DNA of 64,000 nt from an uncultured Actinomycetes bacterium (GCA_963709345.1 CAVPVX010000006.1:46827-110826); one strand, 5' to 3'. Positions 3,889 through 36,564 are shown, counted from the first letter of the stretch. The notes: generated from the sequence alone by a model not told the origin. Program-made: numbers and translations.

Positions 3889-4529
3889 GGCGTCGCTTTG
3901 ACCAGCGTGGCCGTGGTGTCCGCCTCCTGCCCGGAGACGCTCGTCCCCTCGATCCGCATCTCGAGGTGCGTCGCGTCGATGCTCGAGAACACGATCGAGA
4001 AGTCGCCGGCGAGCGCCTTCAGCGCGTCCTTGAAGCGCTCGGCGTTGCCCTCGCCGGCCATGGTGGCGAAGTCGTCGACCGTGATCACCAGTTCGTCTCC
4101 GTCGATGTGGGCGGGGACGGTCGCCTTCTGCTCGGGCTGAGAGCCCGTCAGCGTGACGCTGAACGTGTCCCCGGGGCGCGTCACGAGGACGGTGCCGATG
4201 CCGCTGCCGGTGGCGCTCCAGGCGCCGAGAAACTCGTCACCGCTCGTCGAGGGGCCGCCACGGAGGACGAAGAACCACACCGCGACGATGGCGACGACGG
4301 CGATGATGGCGCCGATGACGACGAGGCGGACGGCGCCCGATGAGCCGGAGGACGAGGACGCGGCGGTCGCCGGCTGCGGCCGGTACTCCGGCGCGAGGTC
4401 GTAGGAGCCGGGCGGAGCGCCTGCGCCGCCGCCCCCGCCTTGCGTCGCGCCGGCGACGGGCGCGCCGCAGCGGCCGCACGTCCAATCGCCCTGCTTGAGC
4501 GCGGCGCCGCAGCTCGGGCAGTCGCTCAT
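3885..4529 (-). CDS. Zinc-ribbon, single TM, extracellular domain protein
   Basis: CPSC...CGRC; TM IIAVVAIVAVWFFVL; GDEFLGAW motif shared with 136..1131. Confidence 0.8.
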   Translation of the reverse strand: MSDCPSCGAALKQGDWTCGRCGAPVAGATQGGGGGAGAPPGSYDLAPEYRPQPATAASSSSGSSGAVRLVVIGAIIAVVAIVAVWFFVLRGGPSTSGDEFLGAWSATGSGIGTVLVTRPGDTFSVTLTGSQPEQKATVPAHIDGDELVITVDDFATMAGEGNAERFKDALKALAGDFSIVFSSIDATHLEMRIEGTSVSGQEADTTATLVKATP

Positions 4530-4539
4530 CGTCTTCTCC

Positions 4540-5841
4540 TCAGAACTCGAGCTTGTCCAGCCGGGCGAAGATCACGTCGCGCCCCGCCGTGTACTGATCC
4601 GGATCCATCGCGGCTTCCACGTCTGCGGAGCTCATGACCGCCATCGCCTCGTCGTTCTGCTTGATGAGCATGCCGAAGTCGACGCCCTCACGCCAGGCGT
4701 GCATGGCAGAGTCCTGGACGACGCGGTAGGCGTCGTCGCGCTGCATGCCCTTGTCCACCAAAGCCAGCAGGACCGCCCCGCTGAACACGAGGCGGTAGCT
4801 CTGGCTCAGGTTCGCCAGCATTCGCTCCTCGTCCACGACGAGGCCGACGACGAGCTTCGTGAAGTTCTGCAGCATGTAGTCGAGGAGGATGCAGCTGTCG
4901 GGCAGCACGATGCGCTCGGCGGAGCTGTGGCTGATGTCGCGCTCGTGCCACAGCGCCATGTTCTCCATGCCGACGACGGCGTTGCCGCGAAGCACGCGGG
5001 CGCAGCCGGCCATGCGCTCGCTGAGGATCGGGTTGCGCTTGTGGGGCATCGCCGACGAGCCCTTCTGTCCCTTCCCGAACGCCTCCTCGGCCTCACGGAC
5101 CTCGCTGCGCTGCAGGTGGCGCACCTCGGTCGCGAACTTCTCGACGCTCGAGCCGATGATCGCCACGGCGCTGAGGAAGGCGGCGTGCCGGTCGCGTTGT
5201 ACCACCTGGTTGCTGATCGGCTCGCGGCCGAGCCCGAGCTCCTCGCAGACCAGATCCTCGACCCGAGGGTCGATGTTGTTGTAGGCGCCCACGGCTCCGC
5301 TGATCTTGCCGACCGCGGCGTTCACGGTGACCATGCGCATGCGCTTGAGGTTGCGGCTGACCTCGAAGGCCCACATGCCGAGCTTCATGCCGAAGGTGAT
5401 GGGCTCGGCGTGGACGCCGTGGGTGCGCCCCACCTGCACCGTGTCGCGGAACTCGAAGGCGCGCCGCTTGAGCGTCTCGCCCAGCGTGACGAGGTCGCGC
5501 TCGAGGAGCAGGCCGGCGCGCTTGATCTGCAGCGCCAGCGCGGTGTCGAGCATGTCGCTGCTGGTCATGCCGTAGTGGACGTACTTGCTCGCGTCGCCGA
5601 CGTGTTCGGCGACGTTGGTGAGAAAGGCGATGACGTCGTGGTTCGTCGTCGCCTCGATCTCGGCGACGCGCGCGACATCGAAGGCGGCCTTCGCCTCGAT
5701 CTCCCGAACGGCCTCGGCGGGTACCTTGCCGAGCTTGTGCCAGGCCTTGACGGCGGCGATCTCGACATCGAGCCAGGCCTGCATCTTGGCTTCTTCGGTC
5801 CAGATGGCGTCCATCTCTGGGAGCGTGTAGCGGTCGATCAT
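4540..5841 (-). CDS. purB: Adenylosuccinate lyase
   Basis: MIDRY start, HYGMTSSD, GRTHGVHAEP, GSSAMPHKRNP. Confidence 0.96.
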   Translation of the reverse strand: MIDRYTLPEMDAIWTEEAKMQAWLDVEIAAVKAWHKLGKVPAEAVREIEAKAAFDVARVAEIEATTNHDVIAFLTNVAEHVGDASKYVHYGMTSSDMLDTALALQIKRAGLLLERDLVTLGETLKRRAFEFRDTVQVGRTHGVHAEPITFGMKLGMWAFEVSRNLKRMRMVTVNAAVGKISGAVGAYNNIDPRVEDLVCEELGLGREPISNQVVQRDRHAAFLSAVAIIGSSVEKFATEVRHLQRSEVREAEEAFGKGQKGSSAMPHKRNPILSERMAGCARVLRGNAVVGMENMALWHERDISHSSAERIVLPDSCILLDYMLQNFTKLVVGLVVDEERMLANLSQSYRLVFSGAVLLALVDKGMQRDDAYRVVQDSAMHAWREGVDFGMLIKQNDEAMAVMSSADVEAAMDPDQYTAGRDVIFARLDKLEF

Positions 5842-27152: not shown

Positions 27153-28664
27153 TCAGCCGGCGCGCTCGGCGATGCTCGCGCTCACGGCGCGCAGCATGCC
27201 GGCCGCCTTGTGCAGCGTCTCGCGGTACTCGCGCACCGGCACCGAGTCGGCGACGATACCGCCGCCGGCCTGCAAGAAGAGGCGGTCACCCTTGCGCACG
27301 AGCGTGCGAATGATGATGTTCAGATCGAGCTGCCGTTCGGCGATCCAGCCGAAGGACCCGGTGTAGGGGCCGCGGCGGACGGTCTCGAGCTCGTCGACGA
27401 TCTCCATGCAGCGGACCTTGGGGCAGCCGGTGATGGTGCCGCCGGGGAACATCGCCTTGACGAGACCGACGGCGTCGTGCGAGGGGTGCAGGCGGCCGCG
27501 CACATTGCTGACGATGTGGATCACGTGCGAGTAGAACTCGTTGACCATGAGCTCGTTGACGCGCACGGTGCCGTACTCGCACACCTTGCCGAGGTCGTTG
27601 CGCTCGAGGTCGACGAGCATGATGTGCTCGGCGCGGTCCTTGGGGTCGAGGTTGAGCTCGTCGGTGAGGTGTTCGTCTTCCGGCTGGAGGGCGCCTCGCG
27701 GCCGCGTACCGGCGATCGGCCGGGTCTCGGCCCAGCCCTCCGCGTCGAGCGAGACCAGGCGCTCGGGCGACGAGCTGATCAGCTCGTAGTCGCCGAAGTG
27801 GAGGTACCCGGCGAAGGGCGACGGGTTGACGGCGCGCAGCGTGCCGTAGAGGTGCAGGCTCGGGAGCGAGTAGCAGAGGTCGAGGCGCTGCGAGAGGTTG
27901 GCCTGGAAGATGTCGCCGGCGAAGACGTACTCCCGGGTCCGGGCGACAACGGCTTCGTACTCGGCTCTGGTGAAGTTGCTGCGGAACACGGGGAGGTCGT
28001 TGCCGTGGAGCACGGCGGCGGAGGCGTGGCGCGCGCGCTCGAGGGCTGCGCCCACGCGCGCGCCTTGTGCCGCCGCCGCGTCGCCGTCCGCGGCGATGCG
28101 GTCGACGAGCAGGGCCTCCCCGGTCGCCAGGTCGTACCGCAGCAGGCGCCCGGGGAGGAACACGTCGATATCGGGTATGCTGAGGTCGTCGCGCACCGTG
28201 TCCGGCAGCCGCTCGAGGTAGCGCACGGCGTCGTACGAGAGCAGGCCGACGAGCGCCTCGGCTTCGGGCAGGCTCGTGATCTCACCTTCATCGCCGCCCA
28301 CATCGCTGCGGCTCACCTGCTCGCCGTTGCGGTCCGTGAACGGCCGTGCGGCCAGCCGCGTCGCGGCACGCAGCGCCTCGAACGGCGCCAGACGGGCGAG
28401 CCCGCCCGCCCGCGCCGCCAGCTCACGCGCCGAACGCCCGCCCGCCCGCGAGACGGAAGATCCGGGTGTGACGGCGACGACGTCGCGTCGCGCGCGTAGC
28501 CGGAAGACCGGATCCCATGCCAGGTAGTGCCGGCGGGCCAGCTGCGCCGATCCGCCCGCCGAATCCAGCAGGACGACCGGCGCCTCGCCCTCGAGACCGA
28601 GAGCCCGCACGAGCGCGACCGGATCGAGGTCCTGTGCCTGGAAGCGGGTGACGTGAGGGTTCAT
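27153..28664 (-). CDS. Aminodeoxychorismate/anthranilate synthase component I family (PabB-like)
   Basis: AGDIFQANLS, NPSPF, SSSPE, RPIAGTR, EHIMLVDLERNDLG, FPGGTITGCPK, RGPYTG. Confidence 0.9.
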   Translation of the reverse strand: MNPHVTRFQAQDLDPVALVRALGLEGEAPVVLLDSAGGSAQLARRHYLAWDPVFRLRARRDVVAVTPGSSVSRAGGRSARELAARAGGLARLAPFEALRAATRLAARPFTDRNGEQVSRSDVGGDEGEITSLPEAEALVGLLSYDAVRYLERLPDTVRDDLSIPDIDVFLPGRLLRYDLATGEALLVDRIAADGDAAAAQGARVGAALERARHASAAVLHGNDLPVFRSNFTRAEYEAVVARTREYVFAGDIFQANLSQRLDLCYSLPSLHLYGTLRAVNPSPFAGYLHFGDYELISSSPERLVSLDAEGWAETRPIAGTRPRGALQPEDEHLTDELNLDPKDRAEHIMLVDLERNDLGKVCEYGTVRVNELMVNEFYSHVIHIVSNVRGRLHPSHDAVGLVKAMFPGGTITGCPKVRCMEIVDELETVRRGPYTGSFGWIAERQLDLNIIIRTLVRKGDRLFLQAGGGIVADSVPVREYRETLHKAAGMLRAVSASIAERAG

Positions 28665-28750
28665 CGGCGGTGGGTCATCGGCGGGGCCTTCGCTTCGCGA
28701 GAGGGCGGCCGCGACCGGCGCTTCGTCCGGCGTGAGTCCGCGGCCTCCTG

Positions 28751-30136
28751 CTACTCCTCGTCGTCGTACCCGTACTCCTCGGTCTGGCGAAGGGCGCGGA
28801 ACTGCGTGTAGTCGCGCACGAAGCCGAGGCGCACCAAGCCGGTGGGGCCGTTGCGGTGCTTGGCGATCTTGACCTTGACGACGCCCTTGGACGCCGGGTC
28901 GCTCGGGTCCTCGTAGATGAACATCACCATGTCGGCGTCCTGCTCGATGGCGCCCGACTCGCGCAGGTCGGCGAGCTGGGGCTCCTTGTCGGCGCGCGCC
29001 TCGGGAGAGCGGTTGAGCTGCGACACGGCGATCACCGGCACCGAGAGCTCACGCGCCAGCTGTTTCATCGAGCGGGAGATGTTGGAGACCTCCTGCTGGC
29101 GGTTGTCGGAGCGGCCGTCGCCGGACATCAGCTGCAGGTAGTCGACGATGACGAGGCTGAGGGGCTGCTTGGACTGTAGACGCCGCGCCTTGGTGCGCAG
29201 CTCGAACATGTTGAGGCCGGCGGTGTCGTCGATGAAGATGTCGGCTTTTTCGAGTACACCCGCCGCCTGCACGAGCTTGGCGTGGTCGTCGGGGGTGAGG
29301 CTGCCGGTGCGCACCTTGTGCGAGCTGACGCGCGCCGACGAGCACATGAGCCGCTCGCCGAGCTCCTCGGCGCTCATCTCAAGGCTGAAGATCGCGACCG
29401 AGGCCTTCTTGCCGTCCGGTGATGCCTTGTTGGCGTCGACGGCGACGTGCTGCGCGATGTTGAGGGCGAGGCTCGTCTTGCCGACGCCGGGGCGCGCCGC
29501 GAGCACGATGAGGTTGGCCTTCTGGAAGCCGCCGGTGAGCTTGTCGATGCCCTCGAAGCCGCTGGCGATGCCGGTGAGCCCCTGGCTGTTCTCCAGGTCG
29601 CCCAGGCGCTCGAAGTTGCGCACCAGGACCTGCTTGATGTGCTCGAACTCGCCGACGCTGCGCTGCTGCTGGATGGCGAAGACCTTCTGCTCGCAGCGGT
29701 CGAGGAGGTCATGGGTGTCGCCGGGGTGCTGGTAGCCGAGCTCTGCGATCTCGTTGCCCACGCGGATGAGCGAGCGCAGTACGCTCTGCTCGCGCACGAT
29801 GCCGGCGTAGTGGGCGGCGTTGGCCGCCGCCGGCACGAACTCGGCCAGTGTGTGCACGAACTCGCGTCCCCCGGCGCGCTCGAGCATGCCGTCGCGTTCC
29901 AGCTGGGCGCTCAGCGTGACGACGTCGACTTCCTCGCTGCGGTTGAAGAGCGTGAGTACCGCGCGGTAGATCAGGCGGTGCGTGTCGCGGTAGAAGTCGT
30001 CGGCGGTGACCACCTCAGCGACCGCCGTGATCGCGTTCGGGTTGACCAGCATGGCGCCGAGCACCGACTGCTCCGCCTCGAGATTGTGGGGCGGCAGATG
30101 CGGACTGGCTGGTGGTTCGATGCGCTCTACTGCCAT
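28751..30136 (-). CDS. dnaB: Replicative DNA helicase
   Basis: PHNLEAEQSVLG, AARPGVGKT, FSLEM, IVDYLQL, DLRESGAIEQDAD, KHRNGPTG; no intein. Confidence 0.97.
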   Translation of the reverse strand: MAVERIEPPASPHLPPHNLEAEQSVLGAMLVNPNAITAVAEVVTADDFYRDTHRLIYRAVLTLFNRSEEVDVVTLSAQLERDGMLERAGGREFVHTLAEFVPAAANAAHYAGIVREQSVLRSLIRVGNEIAELGYQHPGDTHDLLDRCEQKVFAIQQQRSVGEFEHIKQVLVRNFERLGDLENSQGLTGIASGFEGIDKLTGGFQKANLIVLAARPGVGKTSLALNIAQHVAVDANKASPDGKKASVAIFSLEMSAEELGERLMCSSARVSSHKVRTGSLTPDDHAKLVQAAGVLEKADIFIDDTAGLNMFELRTKARRLQSKQPLSLVIVDYLQLMSGDGRSDNRQQEVSNISRSMKQLARELSVPVIAVSQLNRSPEARADKEPQLADLRESGAIEQDADMVMFIYEDPSDPASKGVVKVKIAKHRNGPTGLVRLGFVRDYTQFRALRQTEEYGYDDEE

Positions 30137-30638
30137 GGCTCTCCCGGGCGGTTGGCGGTGCTGGGGTCTCGGAGTCTACGCGACCCAACGGGGTGATGGT
30201 AGCGCAACGCGGGGACGGCGCGTCGCCGCCGCAGTGCAGGGGTCGAGCCCACGTGAAGCTGGATCGCTCGGCAGGCCCTGAGCCTCAAGCGCCACTGCTC
30301 AGCCGCGCCGCGGTTCTCCTTCCCTGCGTGCACGTCGAGGGCGATCCGCACCCGATGGGCGCGGTCTCTCGCCGACTCCATATTCGTCTCCTGCGAACCT
30401 GGCGGTACGGTCTTGCGCAGAAATCGGCAGCTGCAGTCAGCCGATTCTCTCCACTGCAGAAATGCAGTTGGGCGGACAAGCCCGACAGCGAAGGCATGAC
30501 GAGCTTCAGGTATCCCTCAATGCACTACGAGCTGTGGAACGCAGGGCGCACAGTGGCGTTCTTCGCTTCACCGACCGAGTGGCCATCTCGACGTACGCTG
30601 TACCAGCGGAATCACACCGCAACTCCGGCCCAGTCAGG

Positions 30639-31401
30639 CTAAGGTCGACTCCCGCCAGGCTTCCGGAACAGATACATGGCCCAGCCAAGGCAGTCCCGTC
30701 CCCATCGCAGGTAGGCGTCTCGATTCTTGCTCGAGATCTGCAACAGTTGCTCCACGTCTGGGTCGTCGGGATGAGCTGCCGCATAGCGTTCGGCTGCTTG
30801 CCACTGGAGCCCCTCGTACCGGTCCCAGTCGTCCTCACTGGACACCACCGTGTACAGGAACGAAAGGCCCAGGTCCACACCGGCCTGGACGTTACTCCTG
30901 TGAGTTCCGCATAGATCGGCATCTTGACCGGTCAGCCTCAGGTAGTCCGGATCCGGTTCCGTTCTCCAGAAGGGTTCGCCGACGAGCACCAGTCCCCCCG
31001 GCTGTACCATTCTGACTGAGCGCCTCCAGTGTCCCCGTGTGCCCCTTGTAGACCCACGATCCGCCAATGCACGAGGCCAGGTCCAACATCTCCTTTCGGT
31101 CGGGCTCGTACTCGCCACCGTCCATGTGGAGGAGTTCGATGCGCCCGTTCAGGCCGCGGGCCGCCACGTTCTTCCGCGCCTCCTCGATGGTGATGGGTGA
31201 CAGGTCGAGGCCCGTGCCCGCCACTTCGTACTGCTCCGCTACGAGACAAAGGAACTCCGCTTTCCCACACGCCACATCCAGGACGCGACCGCCGTCAGGA
31301 AGGCGGAGAAGCTCGATGAGCTCCTCAGTCTTGGTCAGACTCATCGGGTTCATGACCGTGTGGTCGGTGTGCGTGATGCCAAAGTACTTCCACATGTCCA
31401 T
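30639..31401 (-). CDS. SAM-dependent methyltransferase (YjhP-like), one-base frameshift near 31011
   Basis: VLDVACGKAE in frame 1; MVQPGGLVLVGEPFW...WDRYE in frame 2; span 763 = 3n+1. Confidence 0.8.
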
Positions 31402-31613
31402 CTCGATGGTCGCTTCCTTTCCTCGTGACCAGGCAGGCCAGCGCGGAGTCAGACTACACGATGACTGCGGAGATTCTCGATGTATCGCTCCATCCCTACC
31501 CCTCTGCGATCAGGCTCATCGCCGTACCTGAGAACCAGAGACTGACCAGATGCCGGGGGATGCTGGAGAATGGAAACTCCAGAGTTTGGCCGCAACCCGG
31601 CCTCCAATCAGCC

Positions 31614-31711
31614 GCCCACTATGCGCATCCAGCGGACTTCGGCGCCAGCCAGGTAGACTGAAGCAGGGAAGCATCGCTGCGCCTCGCAGCTGATGCGCAA
31701 CAACGTTAGGC
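31614..31711 (+). mobile_element. Integron attC-like site (degenerate R'')
   Basis: gcccact-atgcg-catccagc ... gctgatg-cgcaacaac-GTTAGGC; tgcgcat(c)cagc pairs with gctgatgcgca leaving one extrahelical base. Confidence 0.7.
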
Positions 31712-31751
31712 GTCGCAGAACCACCGTCTCATTCGACCCGAGAGGAATGCC

Positions 31752-32162
31752 ATGAACACAGCTCCGAGTCGACCCAAAGACGATCCCTGGAAGCTCAAGA
31801 CGCCGCCTGGGACCTCCGAGTACACGATGCACACGGACGAGAAGGACGGGAAGAAGATCCTGGTCTGCACCGTCGGCAGCACAGTGCTGCACTACGACCT
31901 GCGCTGCATCGACGACCTGCACGCGATGCTCAAGAAGGGAGGAGACTGGGTCGAGCTCGGTGGTGCCGACGAGCAGAAGCCGGCCAAGGAAGGAACAGTG
32001 GAGGCCTGGGGCCGCTCAGAAGCCAACCCAATCGGTGGCTGGTACGGTCTGAAGAAGGGATTGCGCGGGCGCTTTGGCGTCTACGTACCACCGCTCATGG
32101 AAGAACTTGGCCTCTGCGAGTTGGAGCACAACGCCAGGAACAATCGTATGCGCGCCAAGTGA
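31752..32162 (+). CDS. Conserved hypothetical gene-cassette protein (DUF6855-like from memory)
   Basis: GAGG RBS; DDPWKLKTPPGTSEY, TVEAWGRS, GGWYGLKKGLRGRFG; flanked by attC sites. Confidence 0.8.
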   Translation: MNTAPSRPKDDPWKLKTPPGTSEYTMHTDEKDGKKILVCTVGSTVLHYDLRCIDDLHAMLKKGGDWVELGGADEQKPAKEGTVEAWGRSEANPIGGWYGLKKGLRGRFGVYVPPLMEELGLCELEHNARNNRMRAK

Positions 32163-32172
32163 GCGAAGCGAC

Positions 32173-32301
32173 GCTTACCCCCTGGCTCAAGCGGAGCGCC
32201 AACGGCGGGCCACCAGGCCCGGTCTGGCGTTGCGCGGTACATTATCGCCGACTCGGGCTTGGCATCCTGCCGTCGTCGCCCGCTCAGCTCGAACGTTGGA
32301 C
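32173..32301 (+). mobile_element. Integron attC site, 129 bp
   Basis: gcttacc-ccctg-gctcaagc...gctcagc-tcgaac-GTTGGAC; internal palindrome acggcggg-ccaggcccgg/tcgggcttgg-cctgccgt; begins 10 nt after the stop codon. Confidence 0.8.
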
Positions 32302-32694
32302 GGGCGAGGCGACGAGGTTGTCTCTTCATTGGACCGTGAGGCGAACGAGGCCGGTCGCAGATTCGTTGCGAACATGTCGGCTGCACTGCACTCGGCGGCC
32401 ATCGTGCGACCGGAGGCTTGCGAATACGTCGCGGCTGTTGTCCGGGGACTGGATTCGAGCCGGCTGGAGCGCAACCCACAACCAGCGTTGCCGACGCAGC
32501 CACCCGTGTCATGGGATGCAGCTGTCGCGGCAGACAGGAGCCCAGGGTCTGGCTCGCTGCTCGAGCCGCTCGTGGGACTTCGCTCCGATCTGGCGTGGTT
32601 CACCGGGGAGCGATTGTGGTCGGGGACCGGGCACCGCCACTTCGCGTCTCGGATCTGGGGGGGCGTACATCGTCGAGAAGGTTGGAGCGGGCCA

Positions 32695-33990
32695 TTGACG
32701 TTTGCCAACCACGCTAGTGAGAGCGACATCGCCGGGCAATGCGAGCATGCAGCCGGCACCTGCACGGCCTGCGGGAAATGCTTCCGGACATGCCCTGCCG
32801 TGGAGCAGCTGGACTTCGGCGAGCTGACGCCGAATGAGGTCCAGGCCGAGGTGCGCGCGTATCTGGCCGGAGGAGACCCTACGGAGGCCGTGTTCCGCCG
32901 CGCGTTCTCGTGCATGGGCTGCTACGGCTGCTGTGAGGGCACCTGTCCTCAAGGCCTCGATGTGATGCACGTCATCGAACTCGTGAAGACGCTCCACCGG
33001 CGCCAGGGGCTGGAAGCGACCGCCTACACGCCCGGTCGCGACCCGGCGGCGCCGCAGCGGGTCCTGGCCGGCATCCAGGTGACCCCCGAGGACTATGGCC
33101 GCGTCTTCACGGCCTCGCCGCGGGGCCCTGCCCGGACCGTCTTCTTCCCCGGCTGCAACGTCTACATCCAGCCGGCCCGTCTCCTGGAGGCCCTCGACCT
33201 GCTTGCGCTCGTCGGCGAGGACGTCGCCTTCGTTCCCGGCCTCGACCACTGCTGCGGCGACACGCCGTTCTTCATGGGAGACCGCGACGAGGGCCTGCAT
33301 GCCGCCGATGATCTCGTGGCCGCGATCATGGCCTACGAGCCCGAGACGGTCGTCTTCTGGTGCCCGACCTGCCTCTGTCGCTTCCACGCCAACGGAGCCC
33401 TCACCCACCCGCTGCCTTTCGCCGCCGTGTCGCTGGCGCAGTTCCTGACCGCGCGATCGGACCGCCTGAGCTTCGCCGAGCCCTTTTCGGCGCGCGCGAC
33501 CCTCCATGAGGCCTGCAAGGCGGCCTTCACCGGTCTGGACCGCGAGGGGCCACGGGCGCTTCTTGCAGGCGTGGCCGGGCTTGAGCTCGTGGAGATGCCG
33601 CGCAGCGGCCCGGAGACCGTCTGTTGCGGGTCCGGTGCGTTCACGTGGTTCCCCTCGATCGGAGCGGAGGTCCGCGACGCGCGCCTCGAGGAGGCTCGCC
33701 GGACCGGAGCGGACATGCTGATCGACGTGTGCCACTACTGTCACCACATCTTCCTGCCCGACGCAGGGCGCTTCGACATCGTAGTGGAGAACTGGATCCA
33801 CGTGCTGGCGCGCGCTGCCGGCGTCGCGCGCAACGACGACTACGCCACGTGGCGTACCCGGGGCGATCCCGAGAGCATCCTCGCCCACGCTCACGACGCG
33901 ATCGCTGCATCGCCCTTCGACCACGAGACCATCGCGGCGGCCGTGAGGTCGCATTTCTCGCTGACGTCGCCGACTCGCGCAGGGGAGTGA
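32695..33990 (+). CDS. (Fe-S)-binding protein, HdrD/GlpC-like (two 4Fe-4S motifs plus two CCG domains)
   Basis: CTACGKCFRTCP, CMGCYGCCEGTCP, FPGC, HCCG, CPTC, HEAC, CCGSG, CHYC; TTG start inferred. Confidence 0.88.
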   Translation: MTFANHASESDIAGQCEHAAGTCTACGKCFRTCPAVEQLDFGELTPNEVQAEVRAYLAGGDPTEAVFRRAFSCMGCYGCCEGTCPQGLDVMHVIELVKTLHRRQGLEATAYTPGRDPAAPQRVLAGIQVTPEDYGRVFTASPRGPARTVFFPGCNVYIQPARLLEALDLLALVGEDVAFVPGLDHCCGDTPFFMGDRDEGLHAADDLVAAIMAYEPETVVFWCPTCLCRFHANGALTHPLPFAAVSLAQFLTARSDRLSFAEPFSARATLHEACKAAFTGLDREGPRALLAGVAGLELVEMPRSGPETVCCGSGAFTWFPSIGAEVRDARLEEARRTGADMLIDVCHYCHHIFLPDAGRFDIVVENWIHVLARAAGVARNDDYATWRTRGDPESILAHAHDAIAASPFDHETIAAAVRSHFSLTSPTRAGE

Positions 33991-34163
33991 TCAGCGCCGA
34001 CGTCCGGCGACCACGGAAGACCGGCCCCACCCGCTTCCCGCGTCTCGGCGGAGCGCTCAGCCTGAGTTCAAGTGCGAAGTGCAGCACCTGCGCATCCGGC
34101 AGCTCGCCACAAGGTCCGTTGCGCGGCGCCGACCCGGCCCGTCTCACGTGGTGTCTTGCGACC

Positions 34164-34700
34164 TCACGTCCGGACGAGCTCGAGAAGCTTGCGGGTCGTG
34201 TTGCAGTTTCGCACTGTCACCCGGTCGTAGAGCGGTGTTCCGACGATCCTCGTCAGCCTGCTCCTGGTGGCGTTGGCGCGGTCGACTCGCCAGATCACCG
34301 CGCCGGGCACGTAGAGGGCGTCCTCGATCCCAGGTCGCGGTCCCATCTCCTCCAGCATGCCGGCGCGATCCACATCCGGCTGCAGGAACACCACGTCGCA
34401 CTTCATCGTGTCGTCATTCGTCCACTCCGCAGGAATGGCCGCGACGATCGCGCCGAGGTCGTCCGCATCGCGGAGTTGCAGGTCGACGTCCAGACCGGTA
34501 CGCGCGCGGATCGCGTCCATCAGGAGGACCGTGAGCCGCGTGCGGTCTGCGACGTCCGTGGAGAAGACGACGTTGCCGGAGTTGATGTAGGTCTTGACCG
34601 CGGTCATGCCGGCGGCTTCGAAGGCGGTCTTCAAGTCGGCCATGCTCAGCATGTTGGCCCCGCCGACGTTGACCCCTCTGAGCAGTGCGAGATATCTCAT
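34164..34700 (-). CDS. DUF1697 family protein
   Basis: YLALLRGVNVGG, VKTYINSGNVVF, TVRN. Confidence 0.9.
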   Translation of the reverse strand: MRYLALLRGVNVGGANMLSMADLKTAFEAAGMTAVKTYINSGNVVFSTDVADRTRLTVLLMDAIRARTGLDVDLQLRDADDLGAIVAAIPAEWTNDDTMKCDVVFLQPDVDRAGMLEEMGPRPGIEDALYVPGAVIWRVDRANATRSRLTRIVGTPLYDRVTVRNCNTTRKLLELVRT

Positions 34701-34930
34701 GGATCCAGTGTACAAGCGGGCTCCCGTCGTGGCTCATGCGCTGCCCGGAATGCTCTGCTGCCCTCGTCGATCCCGGCTCGACGTCCGAAGCCGCCGGGCG
34801 TGCCGCATCGAGTCGCCAGGCTTGCCGCCCCGAGGCTCTGACCGGCATCTTCGTCGCCTCGCCGACTGCTGCGGCGGCGCCCGGTCCGGCGGGTGACCTG
34901 CTGCCTGGTGCGCACCCGGCGCGGCACGCA

Positions 34931-34975
34931 CGAAGCCCCGGGAGACGCGCTCTTCGCGCATCGCCCGGGGCTTCG
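34931..34975 (-). terminator. Hairpin downstream of rplI
   Basis: cgaagccccggg / cccggggcttcg 12-bp arms. Confidence 0.6.
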
Positions 34976-35007
34976 GGGCTCGTGTGGTCTGTGCGCCGGC
35001 GTTGCTC

Positions 35008-35454
35008 TCAGGCCGGCGAAACGATGGTCTTGACGGTGGCGACGAAGCCCTCGGCCACCTCGACGTCGACCATGAAGGTGCCGAGTTCCTTGATCGGCTC
35101 CTCGAGCAACACCTTGCGCTTGTCGATCGTGAACCCGCGAGCTTCCTTGATGGCGTCGGCGATGTCGGCGGACGTGACGCTGCCGAAGAGGCGGTCGCCC
35201 TCGCCGGCCTTGGCGACCAGCGTGAGGACCGTCTTGTTGAGCGTGAGCGTGTACTCCTCGGCTTGGACGGCCATGCGGGCGTCGCGCGCTTTGCGCTCTT
35301 CTTCCCGACGGCGGAACTCGACGATCTTGCCGGGCGTTGCGGGCTCAGCCAGCTTGCGCGGGATCAGGTAGTTGCGAGCGTAGCCTCGGGCTACGTTCGC
35401 AAGCTGACCCTTGTCGCCGAGGTTCTCGACGTCCTGGAGCAGAATGATCTCCAC
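35008..35454 (-). CDS. rplI: 50S ribosomal protein L9
   Basis: IILLQDVENLG, GYARNYLIP, LFGSVT, PIKELG. Confidence 0.97.
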   Translation of the reverse strand: MEIILLQDVENLGDKGQLANVARGYARNYLIPRKLAEPATPGKIVEFRRREEERKARDARMAVQAEEYTLTLNKTVLTLVAKAGEGDRLFGSVTSADIADAIKEARGFTIDKRKVLLEEPIKELGTFMVDVEVAEGFVATVKTIVSPA

Positions 35455-35464
35455 GGCGGCCTCC

Positions 35465-35733
35465 TCAGCGGCTCGCGTAAGGCACGAGCGCCAACTCGCG
35501 CGACTGCATGATGGCGGCCGCGAGCTGGTTCTGGTGCCGGCGGCAGGTACCGGTGATGCGGCGCGAGCGGATCTTGCCCTTGTCGGACATCATGCGGCGC
35601 AGGACCGTGAAGTTCTTGTAGTCGACCTCTTCGATCTTTTCCTTGCAGAAGTAGCAGTAGCGGCGGCGCGCCTGGCCGAATCCGCCGGCCGTACCTTTTT
35701 CTCGCGCCGCGGCTTTGGTTTGGAGCTCGGCAT
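35465..35733 (-). CDS. rpsR: 30S ribosomal protein S18 (Zn-binding C+ type); apparent one-base deletion in an A-run near 35696-35700
   Basis: CYFC, DYKN, GKIRSRRITGTCRRHQ; the RBS-linked ATG (MPSSKPKPRREK) is one base out of frame. Confidence 0.9.
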
Positions 35734-35780
35734 GCGTGTTCTCTCTCCTTACAGCGCCCGGAGGCGCATCCTCTTCGTGC

Positions 35781-36248
35781 TCAGAACGGAATGTCGTCGT
35801 CGGACGTCTCGTGGAAGTCGCCGGACGGCGGTGTGGTCGGGCTGGACGCGCCGAAGTCGGTGCCCGGTTGCTGGCGTGCGGGCTGGCCACCGCCGCTACC
35901 GCCGCCGCCCTCGCGGGGGCCGATGAACTGGACGTTGTCGGCCATGATGGAGACGGCCTGACGCTTCTGGCCGTCCTGCGTCTCCCACTCGCGCCAGCGC
36001 AGCTTGCCGCTGACGGCGACCTGACGACCGCGCGCGAGGTACTGCGCGCAGCGCTCACCCTGACCGCCGAAGACGTCCACGTCGAAGTAGTTGGCCTTGT
36101 CGCCCCACTCGCCGGTGGTCGGGTCCTTGACCCGGTCGTTCACTGCGACGCGCATGCTGCACACGCTCGTACCGCTCGGCGTGGCACGCAACTCAGGGTC
36201 GCGCGTCAGATTGCCGACGATGACGACGCTGTTGACTGATCCGGCCAC
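35781..36248 (-). CDS. ssb: Single-stranded DNA-binding protein
   Basis: NSVVIVGNLTRDPELR; C-terminal DDDIPF. Confidence 0.97.
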   Translation of the reverse strand: MAGSVNSVVIVGNLTRDPELRATPSGTSVCSMRVAVNDRVKDPTTGEWGDKANYFDVDVFGGQGERCAQYLARGRQVAVSGKLRWREWETQDGQKRQAVSIMADNVQFIGPREGGGGSGGGQPARQQPGTDFGASSPTTPPSGDFHETSDDDIPF

Positions 36249-36276
36249 GGTGGACTCCCTTCCCTCGGACGTACCG

Positions 36277-36564
36277 TTAGGACTTGAGCCGCTTGGTCTT
36301 GAAGCGCAAGACCTCGTCGGTGATGCTCAGCACGCGCTCGACTTCGCTGAGAGCCGGGGGTGTGGCCGTGAACGTGATGACCGTGTACACGCCTTCGGAT
36401 TCCTTCTTGATCTCGTAGGCCATCTTCTTCTTGCCCCACTCGTCGATGCCGACAATGGTGCCCTCGGACTTCTCGACGGTGGCGCGAAGACGGTCGACGA
36501 TCTCCTTCTGGCGATCCTCTTCCGCGTTCGGGTTCACGATGAGCATGAGCTCATACCTGTTTAT
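36277..36564 (-). CDS. rpsF: 30S ribosomal protein S6 (apparent ATA start)
   Basis: NRYELMLIVNP, WGKKKMAYEIKK, DEVLR; AGGAGG 8 nt before ATA. Confidence 0.93.
   Translation of the reverse strand: MNRYELMLIVNPNAEEDRQKEIVDRLRATVEKSEGTIVGIDEWGKKKMAYEIKKESEGVYTVITFTATPPALSEVERVLSITDEVLRFKTKRLKS

Follow-up and report, generated by a model that had tools for sequence, protein, structure and literature searches.

The spacer between rplI and dnaB in a soil actinobacterium very probably (with a rough probability of 0.85) holds an integron platform minus its integrase, in which an attI site of the host family's type is followed by a short, partly decayed cassette array (30391-34910). The remnant spans about this interval and consists of the attI and at least two cassettes. 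The source genome (G000) is a Thermoleophilia MAG, and the window, by which we mean the whole stretch of 64,000 nucleotides that was analysed, lies on its contig C6.

An enlarged spacer between dnaB and rplI

The gene order ssb-rpsR-rplI-dnaB is ancestral, as judged from synteny across relatives. In the window, the minus-strand gene dnaB (Pfam) occupies 28751-30136, and the block of rplI, rpsR and ssb covers 35008-36248. The two blocks are separated by 4871 nt, while the gap between dnaB and rplI in relatives measures 165 nt to ~2 kb. The initial annotation of this DNA had pointed to a lower-GC island upstream of dnaB, and the GC profile agrees: GC is 0.59-0.65 over 30300-32400 and 0.66-0.76 in the flanks, with each contig of the genome at 0.69-0.70. 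The island contains four genes, which encode a methyltransferase (minus strand), a DUF6855 protein (plus), a CCG/4Fe-4S oxidoreductase (plus) and a DUF1697 protein (minus), and cassette-borne homologues of all four exist in the arrays of relatives or in metagenomic cassettes. Its far edge is marked by a conserved, unstranded palindrome downstream of rplI (34911-34997), which blastn matched to the rplI-proximal DNA of ten relatives, in four of them on both strands. An Rfam scan of 29500-33500 returned matches at chance level only, and a plain repeat search gave nothing useful. One soil DNA run contained 18% of the sampled window words, as short contigs that provided no joints on the window and are therefore uninformative on excision. 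Among the sequencing runs listed as containing window words, none was of RNA.

A resident integron in the same genome

The observation in the initial annotation that no intI lies in the window extends to the contig, since a search of the genome with TIGR02249 gave no match on contig C6. In the whole assembly, the NCBIfam integron-integrase model identified a single intI above the cut-off, on contig C7 (464 bits vs 265). This gene has no internal stop and is followed on the same strand by an attI ending in GTTAGCC and by four cassettes, each closed by an attC whose boxes are RYYYAAC-like and GTTRRRY-like and whose L box has an unpaired C. The arrangement of a complete integron, with intI beside attI and cassettes, is thus present on contig C7 and absent at the window. 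An intI above the cut-off was also found in 47 of the 89 species genomes of the taxonomic family. By record label, the nearest relatives of the integrase are mostly Thermoleophilia MAGs, followed by Coriobacteriia, cyanobacteria and others.

The covariance models for attC sites (R1-R3) were custom-built in the present analysis, R1 and R2 from this Thermoleophilia family. R1 was made from the four aligned attCs of the genome's own C7 integron, with the R-box and L-box pairs given, and in the 281 kb around 21 family intI genes it produced 266 matches at E<=1, nearly all on the strand of intI. The best 150 of these 266 matches, all intI-adjacent family attCs, were used to build R2, with which we found 20 attC matches in the genome at six places.

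In at least four places in the genome, an attI-type site precedes an attC array, and at only one of them does an intact intI adjoin. An attI profile (described below) reported four further attI-like sites outside the window at E<=0.005, one of them next to the intact intI. On contig C5, about the last 50 nt of intI, including the stop codon, precede a nearly unchanged attI and then attCs. Loss of intI from a platform is therefore visible directly in this genome.

An attI-type site begins the array

A third, weak attC candidate had been proposed at 30402-30473. R2 gave no match there, even with filters off. A profile of 13 intI-adjacent attI sites (nhmmer) instead had its single match in the window at 30391-30475 (E 3.3e-6), so that an attC at this place is ruled out and the element is an attI-type site of the family's integrons (30391-30476, plus strand). 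The profile matched nothing in 272 kb of control loci. In addition, blastn matched the window attI to five intI loci outside the profile, the best of which (L035) is 79% identical over 94 nt (E 3.6e-15). The site ends in GTTGGGC (30470-30476), which would place the crossover between G30470 and T30471.

Among 32 genomes of the genus, the attI profile finds a site upstream of dnaB in only three, G000, G022 and G063. Aligned with each other, these three show homology from the start of dnaB as far as the GTT of the attI, and the DNA past the GTT is unrelated. Homology up to the GTT with different DNA beyond it is the pattern expected of a conserved attI with different first cassettes, and the sequences are consistent with the window attI being the point of cassette insertion. 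In G022, the closest relative by dnaB (98% amino-acid identity), the attI lies at the same place and is followed by three attC matches (36, 76 and 41 bits), whose strand, like that of the window attCs, is opposite to that of dnaB. Among the contents of the G022 cassettes are genes for a YdeI-like protein and an acetyltransferase-like protein and a small gene pair, and one cassette is disrupted by an insertion sequence. In G022, the stretch separating dnaB from the first cassette is similar to window 30390-30476 and also to the DNA found after the stop codon of intI in many genomes of the family. A tblastn search for an intI remnant between dnaB and attI returned noise only, so that loss of intI at the window locus is presumed.

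Two attC sites of different classes

The two attC sites of the initial annotation were recovered at 31614-31711 (attC a) and 32173-32301 (attC b), both on the plus strand. In the 64-kb window, R2 has one significant match, at 31609-31716 (29.8 bits, E 2.1e-5), which covers attC a. When the filters were switched off over 8.5 kb (28000-36500), the same site scored E 2.8e-6 and was the sole match below E 0.4. Genome-wide, it reaches E 1e-3 and is one of the 20 matches, the remaining ones being clustered at five other places. Its R2 score is low for the family. The R'' box reads GCCCACT, with the AAC lost, the R' box is GTTAGGC (31705-31711), and the L box carries an extrahelical C. In simple DNA folding, the site is no better than shuffled sequence (z -0.1). 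Judged from its sequence, attC a belongs to the type of attC native to the family. A weak, partial R2 match was also seen at 30227-30270 (9.1 bits, E 0.4).

R2 misses attC b even with filters off at E<=10, and blastn of attC b against the genome and the family arrays found no relative. In attC b, the R'' box reads GCTTACC (again with the AAC lost) and is separated by 5 nt from the L box, GCT-C-AAGCG, in which a C is extrahelical. A long hairpin occupies the centre of the site, and the R' box is GTTGGAC (32295-32301). Elements of this class were observed in several metagenomic DUF6855 loci; they are 129 nt long and share GCCTAAC, the 5-nt spacer, GCT-C-AA, TTAGC, TCGAAC and GTTAGGC. Full-length copies in loci L230 and L232 are recognised as attCs by R2. 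Aligned with five class members, attC b shows no internal gaps, and in this six-sequence alignment 87.6% of 274 cells are standard pairs vs 27-43% when the partners are slid. Changes on both sides compensate in 26 of 47 pairs, and none of 500 shuffles reaches the observed values; as there are no more than six sequences, some of them related, these counts are indicative only. Folding energies are too weak to be decisive, with z-scores against shuffled sequence of only -1.2 and -2.0.

We built R3 from five homologous 129-nt attCs with the window sequence left out, and it matches the window at 32168-32306 on the plus strand (93.3 bits, E 4.5e-27). The initial annotation had also called the two attCs unrelated, and they do belong to different classes: in the window, R2 and R3 each detect their own site only. 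Genome-wide, R3 has no full match other than attC b. In the 88 other family genomes, it has two shorter matches, of 88-89 nt, of which the one in G060 belongs to an integron array, and no further full-length 129-nt copy under strict filters with 36 candidates scored per genome. The likeness of the second attC to betaproteobacterial cassettes, which had been suggested, has a real counterpart. In a plasmid collection, blastn matched attC b to plasmid pPNAP03 of Polaromonas (beta; 75.8% over 99 nt, E 3e-9) and to pSR8 of Aminobacter (alpha; 75.8% over 124 nt, E 9e-16). Both matching stretches are unannotated, and each is a solitary site just 3' of a small ORF rather than part of an array. The same two records alone were returned when the collection was searched again with the Aminobacter element.

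A cluster of attC sites lacking an integrase (CALIN) is recognised by at least two attCs close together on the same strand with no integrase nearby. Here, the two attCs were found with the custom models R2 (31609-31716) and R3 (32168-32306), and the sole TIGR02249 match above the cut-off in the whole genome is on contig C7.

Cassettes and genes of the array

Cassette 1 (30471-31705, plus strand) runs from the attI crossover to the G of the R' box of attC a. Its start, TTGGGC, appears to be nearly complementary to the R'' box GCCCACT of attC a. The cassette carries, on the opposite strand, a gene for a SAM-dependent methyltransferase (30639-31401; Methyltransf_25, E 1e-9), which is broken into the overlapping frames 30892-31401 and 30639-31118. 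A 94% identical soil contig has one base fewer at 31015, so the frameshift may be either a mutation or an assembly error.

Cassette 2 (31706-32295, plus strand) comprises a 5' leader, the DUF6855 ORF (31752-32162, 136 aa; PF21619, E 6e-71) and its own attC b, which begins 11 nt past the stop codon. It had been proposed that the cassette starts and ends with decayed reverse complements, and the end motifs GTTAGGCGTCGC (31705-31716) and GCGACGCTTACC (32168-32179) are indeed reverse complements in 10 of 12 positions. The leader that follows the GTT is conserved in metagenomic DUF6855 cassettes (85% over 47 nt in L214, 80% over 54 nt in L230), and in L232 the DUF6855 gene is followed by an attC of the site-b class.

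The initial annotation had made its reading depend on orthologues of this ORF occurring in cassettes. A metagenome scan with the DUF6855 protein yielded 80 loci with relatives 78-93% identical, and 18 of them, including 8 of the 12 most similar, have an attC match directly before or after the gene; cassette-borne orthologues therefore do exist. The arrangement seen here, with the attC directly 3' of the ORF, recurs in 10 metagenomic loci. On the contigs with the closest cassettes, GC at the attC matches is 0.56-0.76, and some of these attCs are recognised by both R2 and R3. Chromosomal DUF6855 genes are present in 50 of the 89 family genomes; they are 65-73% identical to the window copy, and their surroundings, of several conserved kinds, are not those of cassettes. 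Of 29 such loci, only 2 have any attC match at E<=0.1, and one alone has matches below 0.01. These loci have no flanks in common with the window and nothing resembling site b downstream.

As only two attCs are detectable here, the later cassettes are delimited by homology to cassettes of relatives. Neither R2 nor R3 finds an attC 3' of 32301, and with its filters off R2 finds none on either strand 3' of the CCG gene or next to the two antisense genes. The 385 bases at 32296-32681 (plus strand) hold no recognisable gene or attC, with no model match and no blastn match in relatives, and we read them as a decayed cassette or a spacer. An R'-like GTTGGAG at 32681-32687 aligns with the start of a CCG cassette in G052. 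It is followed by the gene for an iron-sulfur oxidoreductase with 4Fe-4S dicluster and CCG domains (32695-33990, plus strand; CCG, E 4.5e-20), with a putative TTG start. This gene is 77% identical to a gene in the array of G052 (L049) that is flanked directly by attC matches on both sides. Where the attC of the CCG cassette would be expected, we located by blastn and regular expression a motif of 35-39 nt (34061-34099, plus strand), which recurs in L049/L032, in L042 (twice), in L058 and on contig C7 of G000. R2 and R3 detect no attC in this motif, and we considered that it may represent a third attC class or the end of an insertion sequence.

The last gene, DUF1697 (34164-34715, minus strand; Pfam, E 2e-37), has homologues with 37-38% identity in the arrays of three relatives (L049, L043 and L057), where they are co-oriented. 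The methyltransferase likewise has homologues (28-54% identity) that are co-oriented with the array in six relatives. In the window, by contrast, both of these genes run against the direction of the array. An inversion was considered as the cause and set aside, as no inverted attC supports it.

Both attCs have lost the R'' consensus

The R' core GTTRRRY is present in both attCs, at 31705-31711 (GTTAGGC) and 32295-32301 (GTTGGAC). Both are also imperfect palindromes with an extrahelical L-box base, an unpaired C at the bulge position of the model. In contrast, the R'' core RYYYAAC is retained in neither GCCCACT (site a) nor GCTTACC (site b), and each site has non-standard R-box pairs. We read this mismatch as decay of true sites. 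AAC ends the R'' box in 144 of 150 family attCs, a count that is somewhat circular because those 150 were picked by a model containing AAC; site a has ACT and site b has ACC. The decay of R'' that had been suggested initially is thus seen in both sites. In integron recombination, the integrase acts on a folded strand, whose paired R box it binds and cleaves. Since the R box is the cleavage site, its decay should lower excision and fix the cassettes, and fixation through R'' decay, as read from the two box sequences, is a reasonable inference.

Origin of the cluster

We propose that the platform was inherited within the small lineage of G000, G022 and G063 and that cassettes may have been exchanged at its attI, presumably in trans by an integrase encoded elsewhere in the genome. 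That the first cassettes differ among the three relatives suggests use of the attI subsequent to its arrival in the lineage, and with no integrase at the locus such use would have been in trans. Two cassettes would still be delimited, one with the frameshifted antisense methyltransferase and attC a, the other with DUF6855 and attC b. The CCG/4Fe-4S oxidoreductase and DUF1697 genes may be former cassettes whose attCs are no longer recognisable. Loss of the AAC in both R'' boxes would weaken the cleaved R box and might thereby lock the cassettes in place. The identity of the sites, the synteny, the cassette homologues and the resident intI are observed, while the action in trans, the loss of intI at this locus and the loss of recombination activity are presumed.

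The initial annotation had favoured capture across phyla, in which the DUF6855 cassette with attC b would have originated in an integron outside the phylum (in Proteobacteria, for example) and later become fixed here. Several observations agree with such an origin. Site b is the sole full-length member of its class in the genome, with no full-length copy in the other 88 family genomes; its nearest named relatives, 75.8% identical, are on the Aminobacter and Polaromonas plasmids; and the chromosomal DUF6855 genes of the family are 65-73% identical and in 27 of 29 cases without attC, while metagenomic cassette copies reach 78-93%. However, the contigs with the closest cassettes are taxonomically unplaced, have a high GC (0.56-0.76) and carry some attCs found by both models, and shorter R3 matches do occur in two family genomes, one of them in an integron array (G060). 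The family search with R3 used strict filters with 36 candidates scored per genome, the plasmid copies are solitary sites rather than arrays, and the present data do not reveal a direction of transfer. The genome has its own intI on contig C7, 47 of the 89 family genomes have intI, and site a and the attI are of the family type. Given the resident integron, the family-type attI and attC a and the cassette-borne homologues of all four genes, such capture is unnecessary to explain the locus and unproven for the DUF6855 cassette, and we consider it unlikely. From the initial reading, a CALIN with attCs of mixed origin, the cluster of attCs without an integrase and the presence of two classes have stood, while the foreign origin is unproven and an attI and a resident intI have been added. 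Two attC classes in one short array imply cassettes from different pools.

A distant integrase could also have placed the cassettes singly at a non-attI site, so that the locus never was a platform, a route proposed in the literature (Cury et al., as summarised in PMC8618304). The lack of an intI remnant beside the attI-like site would fit, but the insertion point is not a bare GTT. It is an 85-nt homologue of intI-adjacent attIs (13 profile members and five further loci), its position is conserved among three genomes that differ in their first cassettes, and insertion of this kind is improbable. It is more improbable still, to the point that we give it hardly any weight, that integrons play no part and the sites are terminators or fortuitous palindromes flanking ordinary genes of a variable spacer. 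The weak folding z-scores, the R'' boxes off consensus and the promoter and terminator scan of the locus, which found no such sites, can be cited in favour of that explanation. Against it stand the model E-values (2e-5 and 4.5e-27), the covariation in attC b, the conservation in metagenomes of the cassette leader and of the pairing of gene and attC, and the attC array at the same locus in the closest relative, G022.

The integrase-less platform, which is our preferred reading, can be extended to the whole genome. One integrase may serve several scattered attI platforms, with the integrase-less attIs used in trans as satellite capture sites. The different first cassettes at the dnaB platform in three close relatives suggest that integrase-less attIs remain in use in trans, and we hold this extension tentatively, at somewhat below even odds. 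If it is true, a whole family of Actinomycetota uses integrons routinely.

Relation to known integron systems

Single attCs or cassettes have reportedly been inserted at non-classical genomic sites (Loot and co-workers, 2024). The window cassettes resemble such insertions in lying far from the integrase in a chromosomal intergenic region, but their entry point is a full attI homologue rather than a minimal genomic site.

The Aminobacter pSR8 and Polaromonas pPNAP03 elements resemble attC b in length (129 nt in the Aminobacter copy), in box spacing, in the central hairpin with its loop and in the small ORF directly 5'. Unlike the attC b locus, they have other neighbour genes and proteobacterial hosts, and the sites are unannotated; tblastn found no DUF6855.

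Cury et al. 2016, who define CALIN, name as a possible origin that a genome with several integrons loses the integrase of one (PMC4889954). With two same-strand attCs 461 nt apart on a contig without intI, the window resembles a CALIN as described there, and it differs in that its attI is still present and recognisable. According to the account of the standard tool in PMC9024848, attI sites outside classes 1-3 are not searched. A retained attI of the present kind would therefore normally go unnoticed, and the usual reading of clusters without an integrase is that of orphan attC arrays. Some of these clusters may be whole platforms minus the integrase. The window would then show one fate of an array, in which the integrase is lost, the attI is kept and the cassettes are becoming permanent genes of the chromosome next to an essential one.

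The integrase gene, attI and cassettes share one orientation in this genome and in its family, as in the sedentary chromosomal integrons with an "inverted integrase" that are outlined in PMC13323075. The family arrays are also long, as in sedentary chromosomal integrons, and their attCs are mostly alike, about 97-100 nt. The window departs from such integrons in having no intI and only two recognisable attCs, of two classes.

Actinobacteriota appear among the phyla with integrons in the list of one review (PMC8618304), while complete-genome surveys, as reported in the relevant part of PMC9024848, recorded no complete integron in Actinobacteria, and a 2026 permafrost study states in its text on this phylum that integrons are virtually absent in Actinomycetota (PMC13323075). 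In the literature on Thermoleophilia and on Actinomycetota genome surveys, subscription journals aside, we found no description of the integrons of this Thermoleophilia family. Within a group long thought to be nearly integron-free, this family has intI in 47 of its 89 species genomes, together with long arrays.

Integrons across the Thermoleophilia family

An integron integrase scoring above the curated cut-off was found in 47 of the 89 species genomes of the Thermoleophilia family to which the source genome belongs. At the integrase loci of this family (L042-L061), the arrays extend to at least 14 kb, with attC sites spaced 0.4-1 kb apart, and the cassettes share a strand with intI. These observations are at odds with the literature, in which the Actinomycetota are described as nearly devoid of integrons (PMC13323075, for example).

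Further attI-type sites in the source genome

Two more regions with attI-type sites lie outside the window, on other contigs of the source genome. On contig C5 (locus L299, ~4490-4607), a 3' remnant of intI is followed by a stop codon and attI; the final ~50 bases of intI, the stop codon and attI are nearly identical to those of the intact integron on contig C7, and the remainder of intI is missing. The attI of C5 has attC matches downstream (C5:11715-11814 and C5:13059-13155) and, 2.2 kb upstream, a gene paralogous, at 66% identity, to the CCG gene of the window.

On contig C7, at ~764.9-772.5 kb (loci L008 and L300), two attI-like sites are arranged divergently, and an attC array extends outward from each. 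Between them, we found a 353-aa ORF without a Pfam match and a generic tyrosine recombinase of 433 aa, which was rejected as an integron integrase at 31 bits on TIGR02249. This region could be a platform carrying an inserted mobile element, or an attI adjoined by a second kind of recombinase.

A recurrent motif and insertion sequences near attC sites

A conserved motif of 35-39 nt, at 34061-34099 in the window, occurs repeatedly within cassette arrays (L049 12635-12673, L032 137-175, L042 4039-4070 and 14646-14680, L058 3889-3924, and G000:C7:764350-764386). The motif adjoins an apparent insertion-sequence end in two loci, and in one locus it stands in place of the 5' half of an attC.

In G022, the closest relative by dnaB, the dnaB-linked cassette array is broken by an IS3-like insertion sequence with two ORFs (L132 234-1339), and a further attC, judged by eye, lies past this element at L132 ~125-215. 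Some IS110-family elements target attC sites; on the Aminobacter plasmid, an IS110-family transposase (L294 2174-3241) is located ~760 bp away from the solitary attC of the 129-nt type seen at window 32173-32301.

The methyltransferase frameshift and the chromosomal DUF6855 genes

A contig from a soil metagenome run, 94% identical to window 30987-31257, lacks one base at 31015, a position within the frame-change zone of the window methyltransferase gene (30639-31401, minus strand). The frameshift in the window may be a true mutation or an assembly error.

A short motif rich in G, resembling GGGAACA or GGGTAC, recurs ~60-90 nt upstream of the start codon in many non-cassette DUF6855 genes of the family (loci L062-L090); this motif may be a promoter or regulatory site.
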